IMG/VR virus record: IMGVR_UViG_3300017917_002560
Location: 74,096 to 138,095 of that record
Reading direction: 5' to 3' (one strand)
DNA: 64,000 nt
Origin: a virus
Lineage: Duplodnaviria; Heunggongvirae; Uroviricota; Caudoviricetes
The notes under the pieces are model-generated. The model was given only the letters and a program-made list of their open reading frames with translations, searched no databases and was not told where the DNA came from. Each line of letters begins with the position of its first letter. Within the stretch, counting starts at the first letter, position 1. The translations under genes and the position numbers were made by a program. Shown here piece after piece: positions 9,881 through 43,060 of this stretch.

Positions 9881-10209
9881 CACCTGAAGAGCTAATTAGT
9901 TTATTACAAGACATGCCAGAGCCAGAGCCAGTTTTTTATAGACTGTATCATGACAACAATGGCAATCCATTGTTTTACAGTATGGCAGATGTACCTGGCA
10001 CATACGTTGAAATTGACCGAGATACCTATGCCAAAAATAGTATGCGAGTCAAAGTAATCAATGGACAGTTATTAGAAATTACTTGGAAAACAGTTGACAA
10101 ATTAGTACCCAGTGACACCGGCACTAATTGTGACACCCGTGATGTGTCGGTGGTAGTTAGCTATGAGTCCAATTCAAAATGGAGCAAAAAAAGTTATGTA
10201 TTCAATTGA
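9877..10209 (+). CDS. Hypothetical protein
   Basis: ORF; ATGA overlap with upstream stop at 9878-9880 suggests start at 9877 rather than 9802. Confidence 0.4.
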   Translation: MTPEELISLLQDMPEPEPVFYRLYHDNNGNPLFYSMADVPGTYVEIDRDTYAKNSMRVKVINGQLLEITWKTVDKLVPSDTGTNCDTRDVSVVVSYESNSKWSKKSYVFN

Positions 10210-11119: not shown

Positions 11120-11120
11120 C

Positions 11121-11735
11121 ATGATTGACTATGCTAGACCATGGCACGTGTTAGACATTGATACCACTAATGCGTTGAATCCGCAGTTTGATCCATACAA
11201 GCTACGTGCTGAATCAACTCAAGCTGACGCACCGGTGAGTTTGTGGAAAATTCACGGCAACGAAGTGTACAGCGTATTCAACAAAGATTGGTTGGAACAA
11301 CTAGAAGCACGTGGTATTTCAATGTCATCGGCGATGCTGTTCTATAGAGATGCATACCATGTGCATCCAGTTATCCACATAGATGTATTCAAGGACGGCA
11401 CACCGTGCATATATGCATTTAACTGGGTAATATCACCAGTTGACAACAGTCCCATGGTTTGGTATGATATTGAAATTGGCACCGGCGAAGTAACTGAAAA
11501 CGTAGCCAGCACCAAATATCAATATTGGAGCATGGAAGAGTACCAGCACACTGAAGTTGCAAGAAAAATTATTGGCAACGAGTTGACCATGGTCAAGATA
11601 GGAATGCCGCATACTATTATTGTCAACGAGCATCCACGTTGGTTGATGAGTATTAGATGTACATTCAATGAGAATATCAAAGACTGGAACAGTGCAGTGG
11701 ACTACTATTCACATCTTTTTAAAAGAGTTGACTAA
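11121..11735 (+). CDS. Hypothetical protein (204 aa)
   Basis: ORF, tightly packed operon. Confidence 0.45.
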   Translation: MIDYARPWHVLDIDTTNALNPQFDPYKLRAESTQADAPVSLWKIHGNEVYSVFNKDWLEQLEARGISMSSAMLFYRDAYHVHPVIHIDVFKDGTPCIYAFNWVISPVDNSPMVWYDIEIGTGEVTENVASTKYQYWSMEEYQHTEVARKIIGNELTMVKIGMPHTIIVNEHPRWLMSIRCTFNENIKDWNSAVDYYSHLFKRVD

Positions 11736-12661
11736 TGTTTAGGATAGGCGGAACCAGCGATCGATTCTGGAACAAAACTGAGTTTGTTAAATTTCTAGTG
11801 GATAATCAACACAAAGAAATCAACATCACAGTTGACCCCGAAGCAATTTGCCTGCGGTCGTTAGGTGTGTACGACCTGCTGGATATGTTTGCGTTTGAAT
11901 CAGTTACAGTGCATACATGGAATCCTTTGGAGGCTCACCCCAACTACTGTGTAAAGCTGAACGGTCCAAACTTTTGGTTTGATAGAACAGCCAATATTGA
12001 TCCAATGTTGCATCAGTGGGATTTGTCACATGTTTTTTTATGCATGTATCATCGACCCACTGCTGGCCGCCTTGGCATTGCCAGTTATGCCTCACAGTAT
12101 AATACCTTGATGCACTTTTCTAGCGATCACAACCCTGACGAGTTGGTTCAATACGAGTTAGATAAACTTTTACAATACGATGTTGCTAGTGTGGCACGTG
12201 CTGGAGAGTTTTTGCAGAACTTGCCAATACTGCAAAGCTCACGAGACACGCTAACTAAATTCAATGGATATGATTATCGTGATCCGTTGACTGCATTGTA
12301 CCGTAAATGTTTTGTTGACTTAGTAGTTGAGTCGCACACAACTGGGCAAACATTTTTTCCTACAGAAAAAACCATTAGGCCCATACTGCTTAAAAAGCCG
12401 TTTATTGTGTTTGGCTCTGTCAGCTACTTGGATTACTTGCATCAAATGGGATTCCGTACATTCAGTGACTTCTGGGATGAGGATTATGATGGTTACGAAA
12501 AGGGCGATCGTCTACGACGCATCTATAGTCTAATAGACAGCATCGCCAAAATGCCAATCAACAAGCTTGAAACAATGTATTATGACATGCAGTATTCACT
12601 GGATCACAACTATAATTTGTTGATGAACAAAACTTTTAATAGAACAATAACACCAATATGA
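11735..12661 (+). CDS. GT10 (alpha-1,3-fucosyltransferase)-like glycosyltransferase-fold protein, paralogue 1 of 5
   Basis: Motif FFPTEKTIRPILLKKPFIVFGS...FWDEDYD matches FucT signature (ENSxxxxYxTEKxw...VPVVLG); shared by 14015, 19380, 25409, 26580. Confidence 0.55.
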   Translation: MFRIGGTSDRFWNKTEFVKFLVDNQHKEINITVDPEAICLRSLGVYDLLDMFAFESVTVHTWNPLEAHPNYCVKLNGPNFWFDRTANIDPMLHQWDLSHVFLCMYHRPTAGRLGIASYASQYNTLMHFSSDHNPDELVQYELDKLLQYDVASVARAGEFLQNLPILQSSRDTLTKFNGYDYRDPLTALYRKCFVDLVVESHTTGQTFFPTEKTIRPILLKKPFIVFGSVSYLDYLHQMGFRTFSDFWDEDYDGYEKGDRLRRIYSLIDSIAKMPINKLETMYYDMQYSLDHNYNLLMNKTFNRTITPI

Positions 12662-14058
12662 CCAAAGGCGATCAAAGTACTTTTATGAGTTCTGCTGAGC
12701 AGATGAAATCTGCTCTAGGGCCAGCCATGTGTTTGGCCAAGTGGAAACAGGTGAGCTTACATTTGCCCACTGGGCTTAACAATAGTTGTTATCATCCCCC
12801 GTTGCATGAAATTGATGCCAGCTTGTTGGCCAGCAATCCCAGCACATTGCATAACACACCGTACAAAAAACAACAGCGTAAAATCATGTTGCGTCAAGAG
12901 CGCCCACAAGAATGTGGATACTGCTGGGCCATGGAGGACAACAACAAACTCAGTGACCGTCACTATCGATCAGGTGAACCCTGGGCAGCCAAAGACTTTG
13001 ATAGCATTGTAAACTCAACTGGAGATGAAGATGTCTTACCTAGTTACGTTGAAGTTAATTTTAATCACGCTTGTAATCTTAAATGTAGTTACTGTAGTCC
13101 TCAATTTAGTTCAAGTTGGCAACAAGAAATGGATCACTTTGGCGCTTACCCTACTAGCACTAAACACAATGATCCTAGCCACTTCGTGGGTCGTAATAGA
13201 CCAATCCCAGTGCGCGAGCACAATCCCTATGTAGAAGCATTTTGGCAGTGGTGGCCCACACTGTATCCAGAACTAGAACATTTCCGTATGACCGGTGGCG
13301 AACCACTCATGGACAAGAATACATATCGTGTGTTTGATTATGTGCTGGAGAATCCTAGCAAAAAATTGCACCTCAATGTTACAAGTAACTTCAGCGTAGA
13401 TGAAAACCTGTGGCGCAAGTACAAGGACTATGTCAAGCGATTATGTGACACCGACGACGTAAAGCTAGAACATTTTATGCAGTATGTGAGCCTTGACGGT
13501 TGGGGTACACAGGCAGAATACATGCGACATGGGTTGGACTTTAATTTGTTATGGGATCGGGTCAATCAGTTCTTGGAAGAAATACCATACCGCAACAGCT
13601 TGACATTTATTGTCACAATGAACAACCTTTCAGTTACCAGCTTAGAGCATTTGTTTGCTGGTATCTTAGGACTGCGTAAAACATACAGTAAGACATATCA
13701 ACGTGTTTGGTTTGATACTCCGGTGTTGCGACAGCCGCATTGGCAGAGTTTGCAAATACTGCCAGAAAGCTATGCAGAACGTTTAGAGTATCTGTGGGCA
13801 TGGATGGTGCGCCAAACCGAAACACCCGAGGATCCATTCCATGGATTCAAAGATTATGAGATTGCACGCCTGGATCGAGACATTGCTTGGATGCGTGATG
13901 GGCAAAAGCTAGACCCTGCACAGCTACAGTTAAGGAAAGCAGACTTCTATCGTTTCTTCAATGAGCATGATCGACGCAGAGGCACAGACTTTTTGAAAAC
14001 ATTTCCAGAAATGCGTGAATGGTGGAAGGAGTGTGAATACCATGCTCGGCAATTATAA
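12658..14058 (+). CDS. Radical SAM protein, paralogue 1 of 5 (CNLKCSYC)
   Basis: CxxxCxxC motif; conserved N-terminal C..HPP...NTPxKK...ECGYCW module shared with 15108; no C-terminal SPASM-like Cys clusters seen. Confidence 0.65.
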   Translation: MTKGDQSTFMSSAEQMKSALGPAMCLAKWKQVSLHLPTGLNNSCYHPPLHEIDASLLASNPSTLHNTPYKKQQRKIMLRQERPQECGYCWAMEDNNKLSDRHYRSGEPWAAKDFDSIVNSTGDEDVLPSYVEVNFNHACNLKCSYCSPQFSSSWQQEMDHFGAYPTSTKHNDPSHFVGRNRPIPVREHNPYVEAFWQWWPTLYPELEHFRMTGGEPLMDKNTYRVFDYVLENPSKKLHLNVTSNFSVDENLWRKYKDYVKRLCDTDDVKLEHFMQYVSLDGWGTQAEYMRHGLDFNLLWDRVNQFLEEIPYRNSLTFIVTMNNLSVTSLEHLFAGILGLRKTYSKTYQRVWFDTPVLRQPHWQSLQILPESYAERLEYLWAWMVRQTETPEDPFHGFKDYEIARLDRDIAWMRDGQKLDPAQLQLRKADFYRFFNEHDRRRGTDFLKTFPEMREWWKECEYHARQL

Positions 14059-15157
14059 AATTATTGTTGACGAGTGGGCCGAAGTGTGGGACTTGTTAAA
14101 GCCTTATGCCGACGCTAGCTTTTGGCGCTGGCAAGACGTTGAGTTAGACCCTTCAAACATTTACATTGTTGGCCGTGTGGTACTAAAAGAAAATTGGCAA
14201 GCCATAACCGACTGGGCCACACAGCATCCAGGGCGAATTGTGTTCTCAAACCCAGCAGAAGGAAGCCAAACAATATTGTTGCAGTTACAAAGGTTGCGTA
14301 TCACTGACTATGTACGTGACGGCCGCATTGGATTGTTGACATCGGGTGACCTAGAACCGGGCATTGCTTACTGCAAAACTGATTGCTATTTTAGCAACAT
14401 TGTAGAGTACACCGAAAACAAAGCCGCACAATTGATGTGCGCCCTGGATTACAAAGAACGTAGGCCTTATGAATTTTTGTTTTTAAATGGACGCTTGCGC
14501 CCACATCGCAAGTACATGATAGATCACATGCGTGAATTAAATCTATTGGATCATGCGCTTTGGAGTAATCTTGGTTCGCAAGTTGAAATGTCGTTTACAT
14601 CTGTACTGGAAACCAAGAAGCTAGAACCTATTAGACTACTACCCCCTGAATACGAAATTGATCGTGCAAGGCCAAATCTCAAGCCCAGCTTGTACACCGA
14701 TGGCGGATTTGTTAAACATCAGTTGTTCAACAACACTTGGGGAGACGCTATTGTAAATCATCAATGCTACACAGACACATGGTTTAGTGTAGTAACAGAA
14801 ACCATATTTGACTACCCATATACTTTCCGCACAGAAAAGATTTGGAAGCCCATACTAATGGCACATCCATTTATAGTGGCTGCTAATCCTGGTTATCTGC
14901 GTGATTTGCGCAACGCTGGGTTTAAAACTTTTGCACACTTGATTAACGAAAGCTATGATGAAATTGACAGCCCGTGGGACAGAATTGATCGTGTAATAGA
15001 CACTATAAGCGAAGTTTCTGTCAGTGGAGCCGCTGATTTTTGGGAGGCCTCCCGCGATGTCTGTAAATATAACCAACAACACTTGGTAGAGCATAATCGT
15101 CAAGAACGTGCCTTATTACCTTATAACCTTGAAAAATATCTCAATGAACGATCTTGA
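14015..15157 (+). CDS. GT10-like glycosyltransferase-fold protein, paralogue 2
   Basis: FSVVTETIFDYPYTFRTEKIWKPILMAHPFIVAA...INESYDEID; true start may be 14042. Confidence 0.55.
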   Translation: MNGGRSVNTMLGNYKIIVDEWAEVWDLLKPYADASFWRWQDVELDPSNIYIVGRVVLKENWQAITDWATQHPGRIVFSNPAEGSQTILLQLQRLRITDYVRDGRIGLLTSGDLEPGIAYCKTDCYFSNIVEYTENKAAQLMCALDYKERRPYEFLFLNGRLRPHRKYMIDHMRELNLLDHALWSNLGSQVEMSFTSVLETKKLEPIRLLPPEYEIDRARPNLKPSLYTDGGFVKHQLFNNTWGDAIVNHQCYTDTWFSVVTETIFDYPYTFRTEKIWKPILMAHPFIVAANPGYLRDLRNAGFKTFAHLINESYDEIDSPWDRIDRVIDTISEVSVSGAADFWEASRDVCKYNQQHLVEHNRQERALLPYNLEKYLNERS

Positions 15158-16478
15158 ATTTCGACAACAAGTACTAGATACCAAAAGCGCCAGCTTTTGC
15201 GCAGCCAAGTGGTACAATGCTACAATATGGCTAGGGTCAGGAATGACCACTAGCTGTCACCATCCACCAGCTCATTTAGTGGACATTGATAAAGTTCAGA
15301 CTAACCCTAAGCTGTTGCACAACACGCCGCAGAAAAAAGATGATCGAAAGAAAATGTTGGCGGGAGAACGTCCCAGTGGTTGCGAATACTGCTGGAAGAT
15401 TGAAGACATGGGCCGTGATGCTATCAGTGACCGTGTGTATAAATCAAAAATTTACCCTATAAAGGCATTAGATGAAGCATACAATACACCAGTTGACGCA
15501 GACGTTAACCTCAAAACTCTCGAAATCGCATTTGATCGCACTTGCCAATTTGCTTGTAGCTATTGTAACCCTGCTTTCAGTAGCACATGGGTTAATGATA
15601 TCAAGCGCAACGGTCCTTATGAGCGTCTGGTGTCTGACGGGCGTAACCACTTTACTCACACTCACGATAGTGCTCAATTATACCGCTTTGGCGAAACTAA
15701 TCCGTACATTGAAGCGTTCTTTAAATGGTGGGAGTCAGACCTCCACTCAACCTTAGACGAGTTACGCATCACAGGTGGCGAGCCACTCATGAGTGGTTAT
15801 ACATGGCAACTGCTTGACTGGTTCCAAAACAATAGCGGACGATCAAAAACCCGGCTAGCTATTAATTCAAACTTGGGCATGGAGTTTGATGTTGTAGAAC
15901 GTTTGCTAAAATCAGCCAACGGTGTTGAATTAGACTTGTACACATCCAATGAAAGTTTTAGTGTTCATGCTGAGTATATTCGTGACGGATTAAGTTGGCC
16001 CCAGTGGGTTTACAATATGCGCAAAATCATGGGCTCTAAAAAGCTTCGTGGCTTGCATGTTATGTGTACTATCAACGCATTGTGCTTAGAAAGTTTGCCT
16101 GACTTCCTAGACCAACTCATGGTGTGGAAGAGTGAATACGGAACAGACTTTCCTAATTTCACTCTCAACATACTGCGCTTTCCAAGTTTCCAGTCTCCGC
16201 TGATTTTGCCTGACGAAATTAGAACACAGTACAAGGATAAGTTACAGCAGTGGCTGGATCGGTGGACCAACAACATTTCATTACAAGAACACGAACGCAA
16301 TCATGTACAGCGACTGATTGATTATCTTGACGTTGTTAAGACTCCCCACAGCGAAGCGTTTGACCGCCCTAAATTATTAAACGACTTTAAACAATTTTAT
16401 ACACAGTACGATCAACGTCGTGGCAAAAACTTTGCAGAAACATTCCCTACACTAGCCAACTGGTACAACACACTATGA
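15108..16478 (+). CDS. Radical SAM protein, paralogue 2 (CQFACSYC)
   Basis: CxxxCxxC; N-terminal CHHPPAHLVDID...LHNTPQKKDDRKKMLAGERPSGCEYCW nearly identical architecture to 12658; start may be 15144. Confidence 0.65.
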   Translation: MPYYLITLKNISMNDLEFRQQVLDTKSASFCAAKWYNATIWLGSGMTTSCHHPPAHLVDIDKVQTNPKLLHNTPQKKDDRKKMLAGERPSGCEYCWKIEDMGRDAISDRVYKSKIYPIKALDEAYNTPVDADVNLKTLEIAFDRTCQFACSYCNPAFSSTWVNDIKRNGPYERLVSDGRNHFTHTHDSAQLYRFGETNPYIEAFFKWWESDLHSTLDELRITGGEPLMSGYTWQLLDWFQNNSGRSKTRLAINSNLGMEFDVVERLLKSANGVELDLYTSNESFSVHAEYIRDGLSWPQWVYNMRKIMGSKKLRGLHVMCTINALCLESLPDFLDQLMVWKSEYGTDFPNFTLNILRFPSFQSPLILPDEIRTQYKDKLQQWLDRWTNNISLQEHERNHVQRLIDYLDVVKTPHSEAFDRPKLLNDFKQFYTQYDQRRGKNFAETFPTLANWYNTL

Positions 16479-18172
16479 ACATAACTCAACAATTAGACCA
16501 ACTAAGACAGCAGTACAATATTGTTGCTGTAATAGACTTGGACCCATGGTACGATACCCCTGACTATAAAAAGAAAAACTGGTTCCGTGACTTAATACAA
16601 CCAGTTTACAAAGAAGTATACGAAAACAACGACAGAATTGTTTTTACGCTAAGTCATGGCGACCGGTATGTTAGTGAAAACGATACAGCTGGCTATATCT
16701 TAACACAACTGCAACGAAGAATAAACGAAATTGATGTTAGCAATTTTTTTGTAACACTGTTAACCACTGATCAAACCCAAGCTGACAGTTATGCATCGGC
16801 ACTACCAATTATCAGCACAGATCCAGTACCTATTACAATAACAGTTTGCGAACCTCGAATCGAGCATAGACAATTATTCTCACCAAAAGCAGGATACAAT
16901 TACAACAGCAAAGACCCAATTAAAATTGATGTCAATGAGCTTGATGACAAGGAAAAGTTTCTTTTAACTGAGTCCAAACGTTTTTGTATGTTGCCTTGGA
17001 TACACATTCATGCCTACCCCAACGGTAAAACATACCCTTGCTGTGTTGGTGATATGCAGTTTCCAATTGGTGACATGCACACTCACACTATTCGCGAAAT
17101 CTGGAACCAAGCACCCATGCGAGAAATACGCCAAGCAATGTTGAGCGAAGCACCTGTGGATGCCTGTTCAAGATGTTACGAGCAAGAAGATGTTGGCTTT
17201 ATGAGTATGCGAAACAGTGCCAACAAGCATTATGGGCATCACATCAAACGAGTACACAAAACTAAAGAAGATGGCACACTGGATCAATTTGAATTAGTGT
17301 ACTGGGATATTAGATTCAGTAACTTGTGCAATCTACGTTGCCGTAGTTGCGGGCATATCTTTTCAAGCCAATGGTATCAAGATCAAGCTGAACTCAGTGG
17401 CCCAGACTGGAAAAAGACACACAAGGTGCTGAACTATGCTGGCCGTCACGAAATTGATGCATACGATCAGTTAGTTGAGCATTTGGATTATGTTGAACAA
17501 ATCTACTTTGCCGGCGGCGAACCGCTACTAATGGAAGAACACTATCGTATTCTCGACGAGCTAGTTCAACGCAAACGCTTTGATGTGCGTTTGATTTATA
17601 ACACAAACTTTACGCATACCGATCTCAAGGGCAAGTCGGTGTTTGAATACTGGAAACAGTTTGAGTCAGTTAGCATTGGCGCAAGTCTTGACGATATGGG
17701 CCCACGAGCAGAGTATATTCGCAAAGGTACCAACTGGGCAGTGGTTGAACAAAATCGTAAAGACATGATGGCAATTTGCCCCCAGGTTGATTTCTATATT
17801 AGTCCCACACTGAGTATCATGAACGCACTACACTTGACAGATTTTCATCGTGATTGGGTTGAAAAAGGATTAATCCGTGCGCAGGACCTAAACGTAAATA
17901 TCTTACAAGATCCTCCCTACTATAGAATTGACATCGCTACGTCTGACTATAAACAACAGATTGTTGAAAAGTTTCAAGCTCACATTGAGTGGCTCAAAGA
18001 TAAAGATCCGCTACAACGAGCCACAGTAGGGTTTGCATCTGCTATTAACTTTATCAACAACACTGATAACACACATCTTATTGAAACATTCTGGAAAAAG
18101 ACTGAAGAGCTTGACAGAATACGAAAAGAAAACATCCTGGATATTATTCCTGAGTTAAAGGCACTGAAATGA
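16475..18172 (+). CDS. Radical SAM protein, paralogue 3 with ~180-aa N-terminal extension (CNLRCRSC)
   Basis: CxxxCxxC at residues ~285; preceding CCVGD...C.RC Cys-rich module as in 18169 and 20368. Confidence 0.6.
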   Translation: MNITQQLDQLRQQYNIVAVIDLDPWYDTPDYKKKNWFRDLIQPVYKEVYENNDRIVFTLSHGDRYVSENDTAGYILTQLQRRINEIDVSNFFVTLLTTDQTQADSYASALPIISTDPVPITITVCEPRIEHRQLFSPKAGYNYNSKDPIKIDVNELDDKEKFLLTESKRFCMLPWIHIHAYPNGKTYPCCVGDMQFPIGDMHTHTIREIWNQAPMREIRQAMLSEAPVDACSRCYEQEDVGFMSMRNSANKHYGHHIKRVHKTKEDGTLDQFELVYWDIRFSNLCNLRCRSCGHIFSSQWYQDQAELSGPDWKKTHKVLNYAGRHEIDAYDQLVEHLDYVEQIYFAGGEPLLMEEHYRILDELVQRKRFDVRLIYNTNFTHTDLKGKSVFEYWKQFESVSIGASLDDMGPRAEYIRKGTNWAVVEQNRKDMMAICPQVDFYISPTLSIMNALHLTDFHRDWVEKGLIRAQDLNVNILQDPPYYRIDIATSDYKQQIVEKFQAHIEWLKDKDPLQRATVGFASAINFINNTDNTHLIETFWKKTEELDRIRKENILDIIPELKALK

Positions 18173-20387: not shown

Positions 20388-21687
20388 ACAAAAACCAGAC
20401 ACAATGTGCCTTGCCCCGTGGACGCACACATACCTATCGCCGCAGACCGAGCGACGATTATGCTGTGCGTCAAGAGAACCTGCACAAAACTTTCAGCAAT
20501 ACATTGATACTAAATCTGGTACTGGGCAATACATTCCCATTACACTAGAACAACACTGGAACAGCGATCACATGCGCAGTGTTCGTCGACGCATGATGGC
20601 CGGTGAAACACTGCCAGAATGTGATGTATGCAACAACAAATTGCTTAACACAGATGTGTATCGCGATTACTTTACACATTTGTTCCGTCACAAGTTACCA
20701 GAGATATTTGCATCTACTGCCGAAGATGGCAGTACAACAATGCAACCAGTGAGTTGGGATTATCGCTTCAGCAATTTGTGTAACTTCAAATGTCGCATGT
20801 GTGGCGATATGTTAAGTAGTAGTTGGGAAAGTGAACAACGCCAGCATAACATGATTAACTGGGCAGACTCAAAAAATAATTGGATGCTGCCAGCAGTGCG
20901 TAATCAAATATCGCAGTTTCAAGATCAACAAATTGAAGCAGAGTTTGCCAAAGCTGTAGAAGAACATCGTGTAGAGGAAATTTACTGGGTAGGCGGAGAG
21001 CCACTCATGTATGAACAGCACTGGCGCTACATGCAGAGGATCGTAGAACTAGGAGATGGACCACGTGTATATGCAAGATACAATACCAACCTTAGCAGAA
21101 TTGATTATCGGGGGTGTAACCTTTACAGCGATATTTTGGCTAATATACGAGATTGGCAAATTTGCGCAAGCCTTGACGGTACTGGAGCAGTTGGTGAGTA
21201 CATTAGAACAGGCCTTGACTACCAAACATTCTGCAGAAACTTTGAAGCTGGATTGCAACACCAACGCAATCGACGACAAATGCGACTAGACTTTACACTG
21301 ACATTGCCAGGCTTGTTTGAAGTAGAAGCCATGCAACAACTGGCCAATCGGTATGGCGTAGAAATGTTGGCCAAAGTAGTGTTTGGGTTCAGCCCAGACA
21401 TTGTAATGAGCCCATTGGCATTGCCAAGGTCAATCCTGGAAAGAAAAGTTCGTGAGCTATTGCCAATAACTACTGGTGCGATGCATGATGTGTTGCAACA
21501 ATTGTTGGCTCGTCCTACATTTGAAGAACAATGGCCTGACACTTACAGCAAAAGTATTGCACGTGGAAAGCAACGTATATTAAAGCTAGAAAGTATCAGA
21601 CAACAATCTATTACGTTTGAAGAAATTTGTCAACAGGATAAAGAAATTTATGAGTGGTGGAAAAATATTAGACCAGCTAACGATTAA
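20368..21687 (+). CDS. Radical SAM protein, paralogue 5 (CNFKCRMC)
   Basis: CxxxCxxC; N-terminal CCASREP...CDVCNN module. Confidence 0.65.
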   Translation: MSSSMDKQKPDTMCLAPWTHTYLSPQTERRLCCASREPAQNFQQYIDTKSGTGQYIPITLEQHWNSDHMRSVRRRMMAGETLPECDVCNNKLLNTDVYRDYFTHLFRHKLPEIFASTAEDGSTTMQPVSWDYRFSNLCNFKCRMCGDMLSSSWESEQRQHNMINWADSKNNWMLPAVRNQISQFQDQQIEAEFAKAVEEHRVEEIYWVGGEPLMYEQHWRYMQRIVELGDGPRVYARYNTNLSRIDYRGCNLYSDILANIRDWQICASLDGTGAVGEYIRTGLDYQTFCRNFEAGLQHQRNRRQMRLDFTLTLPGLFEVEAMQQLANRYGVEMLAKVVFGFSPDIVMSPLALPRSILERKVRELLPITTGAMHDVLQQLLARPTFEEQWPDTYSKSIARGKQRILKLESIRQQSITFEEICQQDKEIYEWWKNIRPAND

Positions 21688-22768
21688 GCTAGGTGGGGTC
21701 AACAGTGAATTAACTGTGTATGTTGATGTATGGGATCACTCGCTAGGACGCAAGTGGCTCGGTGCACTGAATCAACTGTTGGATCAACAGTATCATCTTG
21801 AAAAAAATTATTGCTTCTTTGGCTTTCCTGACGGCCCTAGAAATGGTAGATTGATTGTTGAACAAATTAACAAGAGTATTGTAGCCATCAACGCCGCAGA
21901 CTTGGGGTATCAAATCAATGATTACTTTACATTGGAAAACAGTTTGGTGCCCGGGGAGTTAGATCAACCAGTGTCGTTAGATCAGCAACGCCCGCCAGCA
22001 TTGCCCGGCGAAGTTGACCATGCCCACTTTAATCAGTTGCACAGATACTTTGAAGATCTGCAAGGGGTTAGCGGTGCAATATCTGAATATTACAACCGTG
22101 CCGATAGTGCTACACGTTGGCACATACGCCAGCTGAACTTGCTGTGCCATGAATTCGAGTCCTGGGCTTTAAGTAACAGAAAGAAGCATACAGCACCTAT
22201 GTGGATGCGTCCTAGTCAGCTTATGTGTTGGCTCAATGCCCCAAGGTTTGATCTAGATGCCGGAGATTTTGAAATGTTTGGCATTGAAACAATGAATCGT
22301 CCTTTGGGCGGTGTTTACGTTGGAGTTAACAAAGCTATCGGAAAACATCATTGGGAAGTATTTGTTGACGAAGCACATTACAACCCCAACATGATTGTTG
22401 ATAATTTGACTACAACCACAATGCGTGGACAATTAGAAGCGTCGGGCGACTTTGATATAGAGTGGGCCAACAATCCTGGCGATTATGAGTGGCAGAAAAA
22501 ACACTTAGCCGACTTTAGACAGTGGCTAATCAACAACAAGTTTGACCCCGATGACAAAAGCCTGACTATCGGGCATCCGCAAGTGGGCCAAGTTGATTTA
22601 ATGCGCAGTTTTGGCACAACAAACTACCAAGAAATTTGGAGTCAGCTTGAACAGCATCTCAATGTACTCAGTATAAAAACCAGTAGCAGTTACGCAGAGT
22701 ATAATTACAATTGGAGCGATGACAATTTCATTGATCTCCAAGTAGAAAGAATTACCAAAGGAAATTGA
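21617..22768 (+). CDS. Hypothetical protein (383 aa)
   Basis: ORF in same operon; start uncertain (21617 or 21650). Confidence 0.45.
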   Translation: MKKFVNRIKKFMSGGKILDQLTIKLGGVNSELTVYVDVWDHSLGRKWLGALNQLLDQQYHLEKNYCFFGFPDGPRNGRLIVEQINKSIVAINAADLGYQINDYFTLENSLVPGELDQPVSLDQQRPPALPGEVDHAHFNQLHRYFEDLQGVSGAISEYYNRADSATRWHIRQLNLLCHEFESWALSNRKKHTAPMWMRPSQLMCWLNAPRFDLDAGDFEMFGIETMNRPLGGVYVGVNKAIGKHHWEVFVDEAHYNPNMIVDNLTTTTMRGQLEASGDFDIEWANNPGDYEWQKKHLADFRQWLINNKFDPDDKSLTIGHPQVGQVDLMRSFGTTNYQEIWSQLEQHLNVLSIKTSSSYAEYNYNWSDDNFIDLQVERITKGN

Positions 22769-22867
22769 TATGAAATGGATTCGCAATTTAATTGAGCGTA
22801 TTCGGTTAGAGATACGTTATCGTAAAAAGTTAAAAGAGCTACGCAAAAGAGATCCGTTCATTTACAA

Positions 22868-24364
22868 ATGAGCAACATACTGGGAATATCTGCTGGGTTC
22901 CACGATGCCTCGGTGGCATTGGTTGATCGTCACGGCGAGATACTGTTTGCCGGGCATAGCGAACGTTACAGCAAAAAGAAAAATGATGCTGGGCTAGACC
23001 CACATCTATTGCTGGACGCCTGGGACTACGGGTCAATCAATCACATTGCATACTATGAGCGTCCGTGGGCCAAACAACTGCGTCGATTGCGCAGTGGTGA
23101 AGGCATACAATGGGATCAACTCACAGTAACACAGATATTAAACAAACAGCTAGGCCCAGGCTCATGGCCAACTATTAGTACATATAATCATCACCTTAGT
23201 CATGCGGCAGCTGGGTTTCAAACATCACCGTATGATCGAGCCACAGTTGTAGTAATAGATGCCATAGGAGAGTTTGATACTATATCAATATGGGGTGCAG
23301 AATATGATCGAAAAGGTCGTGCAGTTTATAAGAGACTGTGGAGACAAACTTACCCACATTCAATTGGGCTGTTTTATAGTGCAGTCACTGGCCGCGTTGG
23401 CCTTAAGCCACTAGACGAAGAATACATACTCATGGGCATGGCTGCCTATGGTGATCGTGGGTTTGGTACGCTGATGAAACAAGATCTGTTGTCTGACACA
23501 TGGGAAATGAAGTTCAAAGAAAACTTACACATAGGACTAGCACAAAAATATCTGTCCTATGTTGGTGACATGGACATTGCTGCCGGCGCACAAGACTTGG
23601 CAGAAGATCTCATAATGAACGTAATGATTCGTGCCAAGGGGTTTGGCTGGAGCAACAATCTTGTGTACATGGGCGGTGTTGCATTGAATTGCAGTGCTAA
23701 CCGTAAGTTGGGAAGTTGTTTTGATAATATCTGGATTATGCCTAATCCTGGCGATGCTGGCTCTAGCCTTGGTGCCGCCGCGCTGGCATACGGTCATAGG
23801 CTTAATTGGCGTGATGCTTTTCTGGGCCACGATATTGCAGGCCCTTACCCTGTTAATGCCATTTTGGACGAGCTTGTGTCTCGTCGTATCGTTGGTGTCG
23901 CTAGCGGCCGCGCTGAGTTTGGTCCGCGAGCGTTAGGCAACCGCAGTTTGTTGGCCGACCCTCGTGGACCTGAAATAAAGGATCAAGTTAATGAAATCAA
24001 ACGTAGACAAAAATTTCGACCATTTGCGCCAGTCATTCTGGAAGAGCATGTTCATGATTATTTTGACATGCCTCCTGGCTGGAGTGACAGTAGGTATATG
24101 CAAACAATCGCTACTTGCCGGCATCCTGAGCTATTTCCTGCTATCGTTCATTTTGATGGGACTAGTCGTGTTCAAACAGTACCAAAAGCCAGACCCGGAG
24201 AGCAACAATCCGGAATCCGAGAGCTTTTGGAGAAATGGTTTGTTTTGACTGGTTGTCCAATGTTGCTCAATACCAGCTTGAACATACGCGGCGAGCCCAT
24301 GGTAAACGATCGTGCAGATGCAGATCGCTTTGAACAATTATACGGAGTGAAAGTTTGTAGTTAA
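22868..24364 (+). CDS. NodU/CmcH-family carbamoyltransferase
   Basis: N-terminus MSNILGISAGFHDASVALVDRHGEILFAGHSERYSKKKND is the canonical carbamoyltransferase start; C-terminal YqeV-like domain length consistent. Confidence 0.8.
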   Translation: MSNILGISAGFHDASVALVDRHGEILFAGHSERYSKKKNDAGLDPHLLLDAWDYGSINHIAYYERPWAKQLRRLRSGEGIQWDQLTVTQILNKQLGPGSWPTISTYNHHLSHAAAGFQTSPYDRATVVVIDAIGEFDTISIWGAEYDRKGRAVYKRLWRQTYPHSIGLFYSAVTGRVGLKPLDEEYILMGMAAYGDRGFGTLMKQDLLSDTWEMKFKENLHIGLAQKYLSYVGDMDIAAGAQDLAEDLIMNVMIRAKGFGWSNNLVYMGGVALNCSANRKLGSCFDNIWIMPNPGDAGSSLGAAALAYGHRLNWRDAFLGHDIAGPYPVNAILDELVSRRIVGVASGRAEFGPRALGNRSLLADPRGPEIKDQVNEIKRRQKFRPFAPVILEEHVHDYFDMPPGWSDSRYMQTIATCRHPELFPAIVHFDGTSRVQTVPKARPGEQQSGIRELLEKWFVLTGCPMLLNTSLNIRGEPMVNDRADADRFEQLYGVKVCS

Positions 24365-24367
24365 GAA

Positions 24368-24397
24368 AATGCCCCTTTAAGGGGCATTTTTTATAGG
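24368..24397. terminator. Bidirectional intrinsic terminator (aaaatgcccctt/aaggggcatttt)
   Basis: 12-bp perfect hairpin followed by TTTTTAT on + strand and preceded by T-run equivalent on - strand; sits between convergent genes. Confidence 0.7.
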
Positions 24398-25416
24398 TAT
24401 GTTTCTAATCCGCCACGTCGTACAAGGTCCTGTGTACAGCAACTAATGCCACCGTCCCAAAAGTAACTGTGACGCAGTTCAGAGATAATAGGATTGATAC
24501 GATGCTTGCGACAGTAGTCAAATACTTCTTTGTTGTATGCTGAGAAAATTACGTTCTCTTCGTCTAACACAAGACAGTTGACATCAAACACAGTTTCAGC
24601 AACAAACCCAGTCCACTTATTCAGGTAAGTGTTAACGAAGTCTGTAAACTCAGGAGTGGGGGTTTGTCCTTGTACATACCAAGCCCCGGGACTTTGTTCG
24701 TACTTGAACTTGCCTACTTCCATGGCTGCCCAGATACTTGAGTCCCACACTTTGCAAACGTCCCAGCCAGGGAAGTCTCGACCCAAGTCTAAGTTTACGT
24801 CATGCTTGCTTGATAGTATAACACCGGGTTTGAGAATAGCAAACACAGCATCACCGTGTCCGTCTGTTACGGCTTCGTGTATGCGATATCGACTATCCAA
24901 ACAGTTATCTACAATCCACTGAGTTTGATCTGGACGTAAAAAGTCTGAGTTATCAAAAAATACATCAGTGCCCACACGCACAATACAGCTAGCCGACGCA
25001 CCATTTAAGATGCAATCTGGATCCCATGTGCTTTTGTGAGGGTTAACCACAGACTCTTTAAACTTCTCACACACAGAGTCAAGCTCGGGCATGTTAAGCA
25101 CACGCAATAGTTTATCGCCCAAGGTGATTTGCCAGTCGCGTGGTGTCAGTGGCGGCAGCGGAGCACCTCCTCCTTCGGTTTGAAACCAAACAAATTGATC
25201 TTTGTTGGGTAAGTCAGGGCGATGCACTCGTGCGCCGTACTGCTCAATTGTTCGTTGCAAGTTATCAAGATCTTCTTCGGTCTCGGCTAAAATTTGCTGT
25301 AGCTGATTACGTACTTGAGGATTGTCAATAAAGTCAAAGTAATCAGGACTGTATGCACGGCCTACAATAACTTCTTCCAGGGGTTGCCAGCTGGTGTATG
25401 AATTAACTTTAGTCAT
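24391..25416 (-). CDS. Amidinotransferase-superfamily protein (C-terminal GGISCCTQDLVRRG active-site Cys motif)
   Basis: C-terminus matches glycine/inosamine amidinotransferase catalytic Cys segment (GGxxHCxTxDxxRxG). Confidence 0.55.
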   Translation of the reverse strand: MTKVNSYTSWQPLEEVIVGRAYSPDYFDFIDNPQVRNQLQQILAETEEDLDNLQRTIEQYGARVHRPDLPNKDQFVWFQTEGGGAPLPPLTPRDWQITLGDKLLRVLNMPELDSVCEKFKESVVNPHKSTWDPDCILNGASASCIVRVGTDVFFDNSDFLRPDQTQWIVDNCLDSRYRIHEAVTDGHGDAVFAILKPGVILSSKHDVNLDLGRDFPGWDVCKVWDSSIWAAMEVGKFKYEQSPGAWYVQGQTPTPEFTDFVNTYLNKWTGFVAETVFDVNCLVLDEENVIFSAYNKEVFDYCRKHRINPIISELRHSYFWDGGISCCTQDLVRRGGLETYL

Positions 25417-26596
25417 GAATTTTCCAATGTAGGGTATTTAATCTTGCCAGTTTTGAGCCAGCAAATAGTTTTTGATTGTGGTCAAGATCCTTGATAGATT
25501 TTTTGTACAGTTTGTCTAGGCCTTGCTCCTGGGCTTTCTTTATGGCATCCAAAAGTTTAATCCAACGTTGTGTATGGTTTGGTTCAAGATCATAGCTGTT
25601 GTCTAACACATCGTCAAACACACAATACCCTAGATCACGTAGTTGTTGCAAACTACCTGCACCGCCAGCAACAAAGAACAACTGTCCGTGCTTGATGGGT
25701 TTGAATGTTTTTTCTGTAATAAACGCACCGCCGCTTTGATCAACGTCAAATTGACTTTCTAACACAATGTTGCAGTAACTATCCAAGTGATATTTGAATA
25801 CAGTGATACCGTGATCGTTGCGCTGATCCTGAGTCAAGTCATCACTGTAGTAAGGCGCACCTTGTGCAAACTTTTCCAAGTCCCAACGCAGTCTTGAAAT
25901 AGCATCAATTTCAATGGGGTTGTCTTTTGTAAATTCTTGATCCTTGGGGGCTTCGCAGTAGCTCCAGTAACTGTTCTCTAGGATACTATTACGTTGCATG
26001 TCGGCCATGACAGTGGCACGCCACCACTTGTGCAGCCTTGACAACACTGTGAAGTTTTTGCTACGTGATTTGGTATGCATAGGCAGTGGCACTTCTCGGT
26101 TTCTAGCATAGTACCATAGTTCAAAATCTACAAAGCTTACAAAGTTTTCTAGATGGTCTGCTTGACTATTGGAACTAACAAACACATAGCAGTTCTTTGG
26201 CAAATTGTGTTGCGTTACTAAAGAGTCAAGTCTGTTTTTAATGTTGACAGGGTTGTCTCCTTCGTGATAGTAAAACAACACACGAAGTTTTTGTTCTTGC
26301 AATTTGGCAATCACAGCACTGCTCATAAGAGAGAAGTAATCTATCTCAAAATCAAAAAATCCTAGCCCAATAGGGTAAAACGTATGAGCTGGTAGCTCAT
26401 CGTTGATATCAAAGATGTTGATCTTGCCACCGTGTGCCTGGCAGTACTCTTCTAGTCGCAACGGAGTAGTGTATGGCCAATGCTGACCAAACTCTCTCCA
26501 GCTAGTGGTATAAGGGCGACCTTGATGTCTAGCAAACGCTGGATATATTTTTCCCTTGATAGTGCGATCAGCTACAAAATTAAATTCTAAACTCAT
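25409..26596 (-). CDS. GT10-like glycosyltransferase-fold protein, paralogue 4
   Basis: AFITEKTFKPIKHGQLFFVAGGAGSLQQLRDLGYCVFDDVLDNSYD. Confidence 0.55.
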   Translation of the reverse strand: MSLEFNFVADRTIKGKIYPAFARHQGRPYTTSWREFGQHWPYTTPLRLEEYCQAHGGKINIFDINDELPAHTFYPIGLGFFDFEIDYFSLMSSAVIAKLQEQKLRVLFYYHEGDNPVNIKNRLDSLVTQHNLPKNCYVFVSSNSQADHLENFVSFVDFELWYYARNREVPLPMHTKSRSKNFTVLSRLHKWWRATVMADMQRNSILENSYWSYCEAPKDQEFTKDNPIEIDAISRLRWDLEKFAQGAPYYSDDLTQDQRNDHGITVFKYHLDSYCNIVLESQFDVDQSGGAFITEKTFKPIKHGQLFFVAGGAGSLQQLRDLGYCVFDDVLDNSYDLEPNHTQRWIKLLDAIKKAQEQGLDKLYKKSIKDLDHNQKLFAGSKLARLNTLHWKIHD

Positions 26597-27671
26597 TTAA
26601 CATTCCTAATAGTTCTTGCCATAGAACATCGGTAAAGCCGCCGTTGTAAAAATGGTTAAAGTTATGTTCAACAATTGGCAAGCATTGTTGATGTATATCC
26701 CAGCGTTGGCTAGGTGTTAGTTCGTCTAACTGCTTTAACAATTTTACTACTTTTTCAATGCGAAGTCTATCGTCAGTTTCTTCATCATAGCTTTCGTCAA
26801 ACACTGACGCAAACGTTTTGAATCCGTATTCACGCATGTATGCCAGACTGCCGGCTGGTGCCACAAGTACAAATGGCATTTCCAAAGCAATGGCTTTGAA
26901 TGTTTTTTCTGTAATGTGTTGCCTACGCCCAAAGTACACTGTTTCTGTGGGCACATATACCAAACTGTCAGAGGCCTCATCAAAGTTGGTAAGCCAACAT
27001 GATGCCATTTCCTGTGTTTCTTCTCCAGGGAACAATCGCGGCAAGTCTGCGGACTCAAACACTTGCTCTATGTCTGGATATATGCTATTATACTTAGATG
27101 CTACAACAGATATATCTACGTTCTCATATACACAGGTTCTTGGCGCACTGATCCAGTTATGCTCAAGACCCTGCTTGAACACGTTATACAAAAACAGCAC
27201 ACGGTGATCACGTTTGCCAGCAACAATTCGGTTGGGGCTAATGAAAGTGCGTGTGGGCTGTCGGTCTCTAGCACGTGGAATCAAAAAAGTTTTGTCGTAA
27301 CCACGGAACCAGTCCTGACAGGCCCAGCCATGAAAGAAATAGTAGTGTGGAGTCCAACCATATTTTTCGCACAACTTGTCAACAAACTCGCCACGTTCGC
27401 TTACAATAATGTGCCCAGTAGGTTTGCAAAAGATATCATCGTTGCGCCGTATTACATCTTTAAACAGTGGCTCGTGCAAGTCCAGGTGTACAGGTTCTTG
27501 ATCATGCAAATACACGTAGTCGTTTTCTATGATGTTGTCCTGGCCCAAGTTAAATAGATGTTCTGCATCAGTAAACCCAAATGGATCGCAAAAGAATACT
27601 CTAGTACCTGGACGATTTTTAGCAAACCAGGGCCAAAAAGTATTATTGTAAATTTCATCTATTCTAATCAT
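26580..27671 (-). CDS. GT10-like glycosyltransferase-fold protein, paralogue 5
   Basis: VYFGRRQHITEKTFKAIALEMPFVLVAPAGSLAYMREYGFKTFASVFDESYDEETD. Confidence 0.55.
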   Translation of the reverse strand: MIRIDEIYNNTFWPWFAKNRPGTRVFFCDPFGFTDAEHLFNLGQDNIIENDYVYLHDQEPVHLDLHEPLFKDVIRRNDDIFCKPTGHIIVSERGEFVDKLCEKYGWTPHYYFFHGWACQDWFRGYDKTFLIPRARDRQPTRTFISPNRIVAGKRDHRVLFLYNVFKQGLEHNWISAPRTCVYENVDISVVASKYNSIYPDIEQVFESADLPRLFPGEETQEMASCWLTNFDEASDSLVYVPTETVYFGRRQHITEKTFKAIALEMPFVLVAPAGSLAYMREYGFKTFASVFDESYDEETDDRLRIEKVVKLLKQLDELTPSQRWDIHQQCLPIVEHNFNHFYNGGFTDVLWQELLGMLNEFRI

Positions 27672-39935: not shown

Positions 39936-39961
39936 GTTGTGTCCTTTGTTACTATACCATT

Positions 39962-39990
39962 ATTATAGCAAAACTCAAATAAATGGTCAA
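39962..39990 (-). promoter_or_regulatory. Early sigma70-like promoter TTGACC-17-TATAAT (extended TGn)
   Basis: Minus-strand read: cggTTGACCatttatttgagttttgcTATAATaa, 27 nt upstream of VWA gene start. Confidence 0.6.
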
Positions 39991-40127
39991 CCGTGCTTAT
40001 TTGTACTCTTCTTCGGCGGCCAGTAGGATTAGGTGGGCAAAATTTTGGCAAAAAATGTTAAACCAAAGGGTATCTAGTACATCTTCAGGGGCACCGGCTT
40101 CTACTGCAATTGCTCTTAATTCTTGGT

Positions 40128-43047: not shown

Positions 43048-43060
43048 AGTTTAAAAAGGC

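Follow-up and report, generated by a model that had tools for sequence, protein, structure and literature searches.

Mimivirus and the chloroviruses, whose hosts are eukaryotic, encode autonomous glycosylation machinery; we compare these systems with the present locus by analogy only, and to our knowledge no radical-SAM arrays have been described in them. Among marine T4-like myophages, pelagimyophages carry cassettes of glycosyltransferase and radical-SAM genes in their hypervariable regions (PMC7029224), and the cyanophage S-SCSM2R possesses a glycosyltransferase-aminotransferase-radical-SAM-glycosyltransferase cluster with amidinotransferases (PMC12801897). The Campylobacter phages CP220 and CPt10 harbor 11-12 radical-SAM genes, five of which make up a module of unknown function (PMC2853527).

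We analyzed a 64 kb stretch of DNA from an uncultured jumbo myovirus (hereafter the window), which contains an island of about 25 kb at approximately 8.3-33.6 kb. Like the marine T4-like myophages, this island combines clustered glycosyltransferase-like genes with sugar-nucleotide enzymes, radical-SAM genes and an amidinotransferase homologue (p341), which is 29% identical to that of S-SCSM2R. The marine clusters, however, include one or a few radical-SAM genes as variable cassettes together with annotated glycosyltransferase families (GT8, GT10, GT11, GT2), whereas the radical-SAM set described here is a conserved five-member core. A link to glycosyltransferases, as seen in our island, has not been reported for the CP220/CPt10 module, and a tblastn search with one of our radical-SAM proteins (R4) retrieved no Campylobacter phage at E <= 1e-5, so that the radical-SAM families probably differ. 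We propose that the island probably encodes the biosynthesis of a phage glycan whose sugars undergo radical tailoring. Substrate and chemistry are read from gene context alone, because neither of the two central protein families has a characterized member.

The radical-SAM proteins

The original prediction had described five radical-SAM genes (R1-R5) interleaved one-to-one with five genes for divergent proteins that share a TEK motif (T1-T5). All ten reading frames lie where it had placed them and the numbers are indeed equal, but the order is T1 R1 T2 R2 R3 R4 T3 R5, followed by p383 and a carbamoyltransferase and then, all on the opposite strand, by an amidinotransferase homologue, T4 and T5. 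Four conserved proteins (p267, p250, p318 and p204; 8338-11735, plus strand), which gave no hits in Pfam and PDB searches, abut or overlap upstream and are closely coupled to T1 and R1.

The radical-SAM genes, all on the plus strand, encode R1 (12658-14058, 466 aa, 314 bits), R2 (15108-16478, 456 aa, 300 bits), R3 (16475-18172, 565 aa, 407 bits over residues 167-563), the minimal R4 (18169-19380, 403 aa) and R5 (20368-21687, 439 aa, 290 bits). All five are members of NCBIfam NF033640 (N_Twi_rSAM), with scores of 290-407 bits (cut-off 170), and cover the 398 positions of the model essentially in full. With this family they share the predicted CxxxCxxC motif, a GGEP motif and, in the N-terminal part, four invariant cysteines (Cx17-18C...CxxC), while the five anciently diverged members in fixed order and the fusions of R3 with R4 are features of the present system: R3 has an additional N-terminal region of about 165 aa, and in many relatives R3 and R4 form a single protein of about 820-850 aa. 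We found no paper on the function of NF033640, which exists as a naming model only.

Pfam SPASM has hits at the N-terminus of R3 (3e-12, residues 171-235), R4 (5e-6) and, below the cut-off, R5 (4e-3). The shared cysteine module, which the original prediction had correctly noticed, is thus by its sequence a SPASM/twitch-type auxiliary-cluster domain. It had also been argued that the proteins lack C-terminal SPASM-type cysteine clusters and are therefore probably not peptide maturases. The first part holds for the C-terminus; since the N-terminal module is itself of this type, the missing C-terminal cluster is no argument against peptide-maturase-type enzymes.

The radical-SAM proteins could accordingly be SPASM/twitch-type maturases that act, for example, on a virion protein or on the repeat protein rep1005, with the TEK proteins serving as protein O-glycosyltransferases or not being transferases at all. 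Besides the SPASM-like module, the occurrence of SkfB, anSME, ChlB, CteB and EpeE among the structural neighbors of R4, and of POGLUT1/2 and OGT-type protein glycosyltransferases among the structure matches of T5, would suit such a function, as would rep1005 itself (27670-30687, plus strand), a protein conserved in nearly all related loci with seven near-identical repeats of about 66-68 aa and a C-terminal domain. We nevertheless consider peptide or protein modification improbable: the island genes overlap or abut, leaving neither a short precursor reading frame nor intergenic room for one, there was no sign of an RRE or a leader peptide, and the radical-SAM genes associate strongly and repeatedly with nucleotide-sugar enzymes and glycosyltransferases. 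Moreover, cross-hits show that rep1005, which had no hit in Pfam and PDB searches, has its C-terminal domain in common with the free-standing p318, an arrangement more suggestive of an enzyme than of a substrate.

By sequence and by structure, the radical-SAM core is most similar to viperin, BlsE and MoaA (marginal sequence E-values of 4e-6 to 1e-3, over the core only), and these nearest solved relatives have nucleotide or nucleoside sugars as substrates. A partial TIM-barrel core is common to the R proteins and to BtrN, BlsE, MoaA, DesII and viperin; viperin lacks the auxiliary 4Fe-4S domain of the SPASM/twitch members, and in the R proteins this domain is N-terminal rather than C-terminal. 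Membership in a well-characterized family such as QueE or viperin, a caveat of the original prediction, was checked: the R proteins score far below the cut-offs of the NCBIfam models for viperin, MoaA, QueE and BlsE.

TEK proteins and conservation across related loci

T1 (11735-12661, 308 aa), T2 (14015-15157, 380 aa as the longest reading frame, which has an uncertain GTG start and overlaps R1 by 44 nt) and T3 (19380-20387, 335 aa) lie on the plus strand, T4 (25409-26596, 395 aa) and T5 (26580-27671, 363 aa) on the minus strand. As the original prediction had recognized, these divergent proteins have a genuine C-terminal block in common (F.TEKT.KPI..PF.V...G.L.YLR..GF.TF...DESYD): pairwise BLAST E-values range from 1e-5 to 3e-17, and an HMM of the family retrieves exactly T1-T5 from the window. 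The family is large (some 13,000 clusters at a 50% identity level), yielded no match in Pfam, NCBIfam and PHROG searches, and had no member detectable by tblastn in 50,697 GenBank phage records. In one relative, the TEK protein is joined to a UDP-Glc/GDP-Man dehydrogenase domain, and a distant fused TEK protein is flanked by a DegT aminotransferase on one side and a carbamoyltransferase on the other.

The proposed likeness to GT10 fucosyltransferases is partly supported by the predicted fold. We count the CAZy GT10 alpha-1,3/4-fucosyltransferases, such as Helicobacter pylori FucT, FUT9 and the plant enzymes FUT11/13, among the closest known systems. The predicted structure of T5, a moderately confident model (pLDDT 75, but under 50 for residues 27-65), adopts a GT-B glycosyltransferase fold whose best PDB match, by a narrow margin only, is the Helicobacter pylori alpha-1,3-fucosyltransferase (GT10), and a GT10-like motif of T5 can be aligned with a genuine GT10 protein. 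However, Pfam PF00852 (GT10) had no hit among the TEK proteins, and comparing profiles with an authentic GT10 protein gave no more than E 0.008 and 5% probability. Membership of the TEK family in GT10 is therefore not established.

We compared the island with more than 80 related jumbo-phage contigs. The skeleton Epim-DegT-rep1005-T-T-p341-CarbT-p383-R-R-R-R is conserved in 80 IMG/VR loci, and R5-R4-R3-R2, plus R1 where the locus extends far enough, recurs in order at 50-78% identity. Orthologues of R5 (58-75% identity) were found in 76 loci and those of R2 (58-74%) in 35, while R1 orthologues are 70-72% identical in L087 and L088 and 55-61% in L083 and L089-L091; p267, p250 and p318 are syntenic with the array in L083, L087, L090, L091 and L118. 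Within the window, even the closest pair, R1 and R2, is only 31% identical (E 6e-66). By these comparisons, R1-R5 are an anciently diverged, conserved and ordered set and not recent duplicates.

The TEK genes, in contrast, behave as variable cassettes. While the R genes of the window are 67-72% identical to those of its closest relatives, T genes in the same slots reach 29-59%: in L087 and L088, identity is 29-39% for T1, 39% for T2 and 29-31% for T3, whose slot between R4 and R5 is filled in only 18 loci (25-55%). T4 and T5 form a conserved pair, with T4 orthologues in 72 loci and T5 as the most conserved T protein.

These patterns bear on the idea, put forward in the original prediction, that the locus grew by repeated duplication of a radical-SAM and glycosyltransferase pair, each pair installing one unit. 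The equal counts of five and five, the position of three T genes immediately ahead of an R gene (T1-R1, T2-R2, T3-R5) and the recurrence of the order T R T R R R T R in L087 could be read in this way. Yet most relatives have R R R R without an intervening T gene, and L083 contains five R units but not a single T gene over its 22 kb. Of the 169 T genes in the 80 related loci, only 21 have an R neighbor, and the number of T genes in a locus shows no correlation with that of R genes (r = -0.11). The R genes represent ancient types of orthologue whose order was retained; where they flank a T1-T3 slot they are about 70% identical, against 29-39% for the T genes in these slots. T1 and T2 are not the closest T pair, unlike R1 and R2. 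Pair duplication is thus very improbable: both gene types are real, but the comparisons indicate that they were not duplicated as pairs.

Sugar-pathway genes and the proposed glycan

Downstream of the array, a NodU/TobZ-type carbamoyltransferase (22868-24364, plus strand; Pfam Carbam_trans_N 4e-35, Carbam_trans_C 6.5e-47; nearest NCBIfam model NodU) is followed on the minus strand by p341 (24391-25416; phrog_25854), which matches the PDB sequences of AGAT (4e-11), the inosamine-phosphate amidinotransferase StrB1 (3e-10), SxtG and HsvA, and in which the catalytic Cys and His of amidinotransferases align. Three further minus-strand genes encode a GFO/IDH/MocA oxidoreductase (30679-31560; assigned by Pfam, with the nearest model, UDP-GlcNAc 3-dehydrogenase NF040723, at 8e-21 and below its cut-off), a DegT/DnrJ/EryC1 sugar aminotransferase conserved in related loci (31557-32648; Pfam 1.7e-104; nearest models PseC and LegC) and an SDR-family NDP-sugar 4,6-dehydratase/epimerase (32638-33612; Pfam Epimerase 2.8e-44, GDP_Man_Dehyd 2e-31; nearest NCBIfam model dTDP-glucose 4,6-dehydratase, below cut-off). 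Together, these three are parts for an amino-dideoxy sugar. A NeuD/PglB/VioB-type sugar acetyltransferase is encoded at 44571-45248 of the window.

The same radical-SAM family occurs with glycosyltransferases elsewhere. A 1.74 Mb Bdellovibrionota contig (L101) carries a five-gene N_Twi array, immediately upstream of which GT2 genes lie between further Pfam Radical_SAM genes; six R genes in L103 are flanked by two GT2, two epimerase and one carbamoyltransferase gene; and in Vibrio phage K566 four R genes are interspersed with two GT8 genes and one weakly GT4-like gene. The carbamoyltransferase is kept beside R arrays in both phages and Bdellovibrionota. A crude and unreliable scan found no glycosyltransferases beside many bacterial R arrays.

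GT-B proteins could also glycosylate modified phage bases, as the T4 alpha- and beta-glucosyltransferases do, with the radical-SAM, amidino-, carbamoyl- and amino-transfer enzymes elaborating the appended groups for restriction evasion. We regard such DNA hypermodification as unlikely, because searches of the window turned up no hydroxymethylase, DpdA, 5-HMUDK-type kinase or QueC/D/E signature, and ThyX and dCMP deaminase represent ordinary nucleotide metabolism. Moreover, the same radical-SAM arrays accompany GT2 and NDP-sugar enzymes on a Bdellovibrionota chromosome, and the set of DegT aminotransferase, dehydratase and acetyltransferase is typical of envelope and glycoprotein sugars.

A similarly small likelihood attaches to a free secondary metabolite, an aminoglycoside- or aminocyclitol-like molecule with guanidino and carbamoyl groups that would be released during infection and act on the host or on competitors. 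The StrB1-like amidinotransferase, the NodU/TobZ-type carbamoyltransferase, the DegT aminotransferase, the GFO/inositol-dehydrogenase-like oxidoreductase and the twitch radical-SAM proteins, which we take to be of the BtrN type, do resemble aminoglycoside pathways. Similar cyanophage genes have been termed 'antibiotic synthesis genes' (PMC12801897). However, a StrB1-like fold by itself does not indicate the substrate, and 2-deoxy-scyllo-inosose synthase, inositol-phosphate synthase, a resistance gene and an exporter were not detected in the window; at least five glycosyltransferase-like genes with fast-diverging acceptor domains fit the diversity of a polymer or glycoconjugate better.

For the radically tailored glycan that we favor, the CxxxCxxC-bound cluster of each radical-SAM protein would cleave SAM to a 5'-deoxyadenosyl radical, which could take a hydrogen from a sugar carbon, either in a nucleotide-sugar or in the growing glycan, while the fully Cys-ligated auxiliary cluster may shuttle an electron, as in BtrN and anSME. 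The five proteins might achieve five different outcomes, such as oxidation, epimerization, dehydration, decarboxylation or C-C bond formation. The TEK proteins, with a common, putatively donor-binding C-terminal half and divergent N-terminal acceptor halves, would then move the tailored sugars onto differing acceptors, and this could make the product structure strain-specific. Most likely, the product would be a surface glycoconjugate carried by virion proteins or by the infected cell's envelope.

The conserved protein p383 (21617-22768, plus strand; 372 aa in public gene calls) occurs in nearly all related loci, always between R5 and the carbamoyltransferase. A PDB sequence search with p383 gave no hit, and none of its more than 5,500 homologues carries a Pfam domain; the protein has many invariant His, Cys, Glu and Asp residues.

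Gene order and conservation across related loci

We found all ten open reading frames of the original prediction in the window, namely five genes for radical-SAM (rSAM) proteins, R1 to R5, and five genes for proteins with a TEK motif, T1 to T5. The plus strand carries T1 (11735-12661), R1 (12658-14058), T2 (14015-15157), R2 (15108-16478), R3 (16475-18172), R4 (18169-19380), T3 (19380-20387) and R5 (20368-21687), followed by p383 (named, like other proteins here, by its length of 383 aa) and a carbamoyltransferase. After the latter, the minus strand encodes p341 (341 aa), T4 (25409-26596) and T5 (26580-27671). The two families are thus equal in number, but the one-to-one interleaving that had been proposed does not extend to their order, in which R2, R3 and R4 follow one another directly. 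The plus-strand genes between 8338 and 22768 overlap or abut, and gaps within this island of sugar-type genes are limited to 360, 99 and 26 nt. The window stems from an uncultured jumbo phage, whose proteins bear only a distant likeness to those of the jumbo myoviruses PA5oct and Atu_ph07 and of Rak2-like phages. A JGI metagenome contig of 138 kb encodes proteins identical to T5 and R4. At the DNA level, a megablast search of 50,697 GenBank phage records gave no match to the region, and positions 1-51000 contain no Rfam elements, riboswitches included.

A scan of IMG/VR with a T5 alignment yielded 80 loci, on contigs as long as 364 kb, which were then HMM-scanned. These loci share the skeleton Epim-DegT-rep1005-T5-T4-p341-CarbT-p383-R5-R4-R3-R2, where Epim is an NDP-sugar dehydratase/epimerase, rep1005 a repeat protein and CarbT the carbamoyltransferase. 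The order of the R genes is kept across related loci, mostly as an uninterrupted tandem run, with 50-78% identity to the window copies. A T gene occupies the slot between R5 and R4 in just 18 loci, at 25-55% identity. Two contigs assigned to a Haliscomenobacter MAG (NZ_JBBAKG010000001.1 and NZ_JBBAKG010000003.1, 183 and 148 kb) show exactly the pattern of the window; they are jumbo-phage DNA placed in the wrong bin, or else they hint at a Saprospiraceae bacterium as host. In these contigs the R genes (67-72%), CarbT (68-73%) and p318 (75-76%) are more similar to the window than T4 and T5 (43-59%) or T1, T2 and T3 (29-39%). As R order and identity are maintained and the T genes diverge, the rSAM set constitutes the conserved core, and the TEK genes are fast-diverging or exchanged cassettes.

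This pattern contradicts the proposal that the locus grew by duplication of rSAM plus glycosyltransferase (GT) pairs. R genes form runs without T genes, an R neighbour is present for only 21 of 169 T genes, and the numbers of T and R genes per locus are uncorrelated (r = -0.11). Moreover, L083, a contig of 123 kb with synteny across the entire island, encodes five R units, as R1, R2, a fused R3-R4 and R5, but its 22 kb lack T genes. Duplication in pairs is therefore very improbable. In the same contig a dCMP deaminase gene (17371-17871), between CarbT and the repeat protein, takes the place held by p341, T4 and T5 in the window.

The radical-SAM family and its distribution

All five R proteins score well above the curated cut-off of 170 bits for the NCBIfam model NF033640 (N_Twi_rSAM, 'twitch domain-containing radical SAM protein'), of which they cover nearly the entire length (R1 314, R2 300, R3 407, R4 339 and R5 290 bits in whole-protein comparison). 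By contrast, the gathering score of 29.5 for Pfam PF04055 is passed by R4 alone (33.4), with R1, R2, R3 and R5 at 23.7-29.2; the predicted model of R4 superposes on rSAM cores. An alignment of R1 to R5 reveals four invariant N-terminal cysteines (Cx17-18C...CxxC) in addition to CxxxCxxC and GGEP. In R4 numbering, C9, C27, C74 and C77 precede C123, C127 and C130, and all are invariant in the five paralogues and in 25-30 homologues. The Pfam SPASM model matches the N-terminal module of R3 and R4, and weakly that of R5. The shared cysteine-containing N-terminal module of the original prediction is thus real, and its cysteine pattern points to an auxiliary Fe-S domain of the twitch/SPASM type that is located at the N-terminus. 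That C-terminal SPASM clusters are missing, as had been stated, is literally true, but with this N-terminal domain it does not set R1 to R5 apart from the SPASM/twitch group. Mutual identities of 20-31%, with R1 and R2 as the nearest pair and R3, R4 and R5 as a second group, mark the paralogues as old.

Several better-known identities were considered and rejected. A full SPASM rSAM protein would carry a C-terminal seven-cysteine motif and two auxiliary clusters; R1 to R5 have only four auxiliary cysteines, all N-terminal, and no conserved C-terminal ones. A RiPP maturase system lacks its precursor-peptide gene among the tightly packed neighbours, and the R proteins score far under the cut-offs of the NCBIfam models for RiPP maturases. 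Viperin and QueE, both named in the original prediction, as well as MoaA and BlsE, reach best NCBIfam scores of 12-30 bits against cut-offs of 180-450. Modification of proteins or peptides as the task of the island is, in our estimate, quite improbable. Our literature search yielded no paper on the function of N_Twi_rSAM proteins and nothing on that of jumbo-phage rSAM-GT loci or of the Vibrio phage K566.

Natural fusions link two of the enzymes. Dozens of proteins of about 800-850 aa (P0121-P0159) combine an R3-like N-terminal half with an R4-like C-terminal half, and the fused R3-R4 of L083 (9962-12556) unites two N-twitch rSAM units in one protein. Such fusions suggest that both enzymes act together and that at least these two steps are coupled.

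When one genome per bacterial species was scanned with the rSAM alignment as query, 79 loci were obtained; the same scan with R3 alone gave none. About 35 of these 79 best loci belong to Bdellovibrionota or Bacteriovoracaceae and comprise 3-8 tandem R paralogues, often together with a carbamoyltransferase. The enrichment in predatory bacteria is striking (L094-L165, e.g. L094, L101 and L103), and for some of their R types the identity to the phage copies is 43-54%. A 1.74 Mb contig from Bdellovibrionota (L101) carries a five-gene N_Twi array; immediately upstream of it, two GT2 genes lie between additional genes that match Pfam Radical_SAM. In L103 six R genes are flanked by two GT2 genes, two NDP-sugar dehydratases/epimerases and one carbamoyltransferase. 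The cultured Vibrio phage K566 (255 kb) has the order R - GT8 - R - R - weak GT4-like - R - GT8. A TEK gene is absent from all three. The link between the rSAM family and glycosyl transfer therefore holds across lineages, with a differing GT family, and this rSAM family lies repeatedly beside GTs of three families, in jumbo phages, a cultured Vibrio phage and Bdellovibrionota. A jackhmmer count of GT2 and GT8 genes near the bacterial arrays was discarded for query drift, since the 'GT2' query pulled in R1. Some of the 79 loci belong to marine MAGs. Seven such contigs (L089-L092, L118, L137 and L147), labelled as Legionellales, Rickettsiales (MED606, MED657), TMED41, TMED56 or Porticoccaceae, contain the phage-type block p321-p267-p250-p318-R-R-R-R-R and probably represent phage DNA that was wrongly binned as bacterial.

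As a general kind, phage glycan islands that include rSAM cassettes are already known. GT and rSAM cassettes were noted in pelagimyophage hypervariable regions (PMC7029224), cyanophage S-SCSM2R possesses a GT - DegT-like - rSAM - GT cluster with amidinotransferases (PMC12801897), and Campylobacter phages carry five-gene rSAM modules of unknown role (PMC2853527). None of these published clusters has been dissected so far, and the chemistry of phage glycan islands, known in outline, is almost unexplored. New in our data are a fixed five-member core of N-twitch rSAM proteins, from a family without a characterised member, and its common occurrence in jumbo phages and Bdellovibrionota.

The TEK family and its possible relation to GT10

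The similarity among T1 to T5 is confined to a C-terminal block (26-37% identity over 60-170 residues), and their N-terminal halves are unrelated by sequence. T1 to T5 had no match in Pfam, NCBIfam or PHROG, 54 diverse family members had none in Pfam (E <= 0.01), tblastn of T2, T3 and T5 retrieved nothing from the 50,697 phage records, and a family profile found only noise and no solved structure among PDB sequences. The family itself is very large. A word-indexed search returned more than 3,900 proteins, all 'hypothetical', and an exhaustive profile search recovered 13,311 cluster representatives (50% identity), including 9,620 at E <= 1e-10; many are double-length fusions. One double TEK protein of 1018 aa (L167, 3382-6438) is flanked by a DegT aminotransferase and a carbamoyltransferase. 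This unnamed GT-B-like family of about 13,000 clusters, for which Pfam has no model, is likewise new as a source of fast-evolving variable cassettes.

The original prediction had described these proteins as resembling GT10 fucosyltransferases. At the level of fold and motif this likeness stands. The predicted structure of a TEK protein comprises two Rossmann-like domains and resembles solved GT-B enzymes; in the fold comparison of the T5 model, the best PDB match, by a small margin, is the alpha-1,3-fucosyltransferase (GT10) of H. pylori, and chlorovirus B736L (9.7), POGLUT2 (9.2) and T4 beta-glucosyltransferase (9.0) are accompanied by three further GT10 structures (8.3-8.9). The Glu and Lys of TEK are invariant across the family. 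The donor-binding motif of GT10 is, as we take it, FxxxxENS...Y.TEK...P..G with an invariant Glu-Lys pair, the roles of its residues following the H. pylori FucT literature. Membership in GT10, however, is not established. Pfam PF00852 (Glyco_transf_10) does not match T1 to T5 at E <= 0.1, although it detects the genuine GT10-domain protein of S-SCSM2R at 1.6e-14 in the same test. A comparison of the TEK profile with this S-SCSM2R protein by hhalign pairs V.ET...F.TEK..K.I....PFI..G with VENAV..YFTEKLTDCFATGTIPIFYG, at the weak statistics of E 0.008 and 5% probability. Fold matches in BFVD comprise about 20 uncharacterised proteins of uncultured Caudovirales. In one of them, A0A6J5TB28, the TEK fold is fused to the N-terminal domain of a UDP-glucose/GDP-mannose dehydrogenase.

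Sugar-pathway genes and the proposed product

Downstream, the minus strand encodes a GFO/IDH/MocA oxidoreductase (nearest model UDP-GlcNAc 3-dehydrogenase), a DegT aminotransferase (1.7e-104; nearest models PseC and LegC) and the NDP-sugar 4,6-dehydratase/epimerase; a NeuD/PglB/VioB-type sugar N-acetyltransferase and ThyX lie further along the window. As all sugar enzymes remain below equivalog cut-offs, these are nearest models only and do not assign the pathway to a GDP-, dTDP- or UDP-sugar. The carbamoyltransferase is of the NodU type (22868-24364). With p341, phmmer finds amidinotransferases at 4e-11 to 2.5e-8 (AGAT 4e-11, StrB1 3e-10, also SxtG and HsvA), with which its catalytic Cys (C-terminal GG.xC) and His (His-x-Asp motif) align; Pfam gave no match at E <= 0.01. 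On this evidence p341 is an amidinotransferase homologue, and the combination of an rSAM core with amidino and carbamoyl transfer is a further novelty of the island. Between R5 and the carbamoyltransferase always lies p383 (21617-22768, plus strand). Its homologues number more than 5,500 (62-83% identity), and it has no Pfam or PDB sequence match. His, Cys, Glu and Asp are invariant at many of its positions, which suggests an unrecognised metalloenzyme.

We consider it fairly probable that the island directs the synthesis of a glycan with radical tailoring of its sugars, and within this reading we favour as product a surface glycoconjugate attached either to virion proteins or to the envelope of the infected cell. 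The same genes could instead serve hypermodification of the DNA, or yield a free aminoglycoside-like metabolite; we regard each of these as unlikely. In glycan synthesis, dehydratase, aminotransferase, oxidoreductase and acetyltransferase would produce amino-dideoxy nucleotide sugars, which amidino- and carbamoyltransferases would decorate. Each of the five rSAM enzymes may abstract hydrogen at a sugar carbon or intermediate of its own, resulting in oxidation, epimerisation, dehydration, decarboxylation or C-C bond formation, and the fusions argue for coupled R3 and R4 steps. In BtrN and anSME an auxiliary cluster serves as electron conduit; by analogy, the four-cysteine cluster of the R proteins could have this function. 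The TEK proteins would share the half that binds the donor and differ in the half for the acceptor; they would build up the product and fix its strain-specific structure. If the rSAM proteins tailor sugars, they would extend radical carbohydrate chemistry by several new reactions and account for a large block of the 'dark matter' genes found in aquatic jumbo phages.

More tentatively, R1 to R5 could form a fixed cascade with coupled R3 and R4, which together with the amidinotransferase, the carbamoyltransferase and the metalloenzyme-like p383 builds an extensively tailored sugar or glycan of a class not described before. This machinery would be common to jumbo phages and predatory Bdellovibrionota, and product diversity would come from exchangeable 'specificity cassettes' of the GT-B family. 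Such a cascade, if true, would amount to a new branch of radical chemistry on glycans, and it might be a widespread way in which predators of Gram-negative bacteria decorate surfaces. The chemistry could prove new, and the cultured Vibrio phages K566 and K567 offer a system in which it is testable.

The repeat protein rep1005 (1005 aa, 27670-30687, plus strand) is kept between DegT and T5 in nearly all related loci. It contains seven tandem repeats, each about 66-68 aa long, that bear the strikingly conserved motif (F/W)D(Y/W)SWxPDPx(D/E)PPYIYVFGNQWxPAE...T(V/I)EYxVPGATE(R/K)KY, beneath which the DNA has no tandem repeat, and it shares a C-terminal domain with the free-standing p318 (10163-11119). 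Neither Pfam nor PDB gave a match for rep1005, nor did PDB sequence searches for p267 and p318. Three further systems are encoded on the minus strand: an S-adenosylhomocysteine hydrolase (46972-48375), an AhpC peroxiredoxin with a CMD/AhpD-like partner (48610-50602), and a MoxR AAA ATPase with a VWA/DUF2201 protein (38652-44205), which form a CobS/CobT-like pair. The hydrolase would recycle S-adenosylhomocysteine, which fits a heavy use of SAM. An array of 39 tRNA genes, all on the minus strand and covering most amino acids, extends from 51617 to 63223 and ends at a GIY-YIG endonuclease gene (63201-63809). At its other edge lies a sixth, unrelated rSAM open reading frame (294 aa, 51692-52576, minus strand), which aligns with PhpK/B12-type rSAM models over their C-terminal half only and may be a truncated or split gene.
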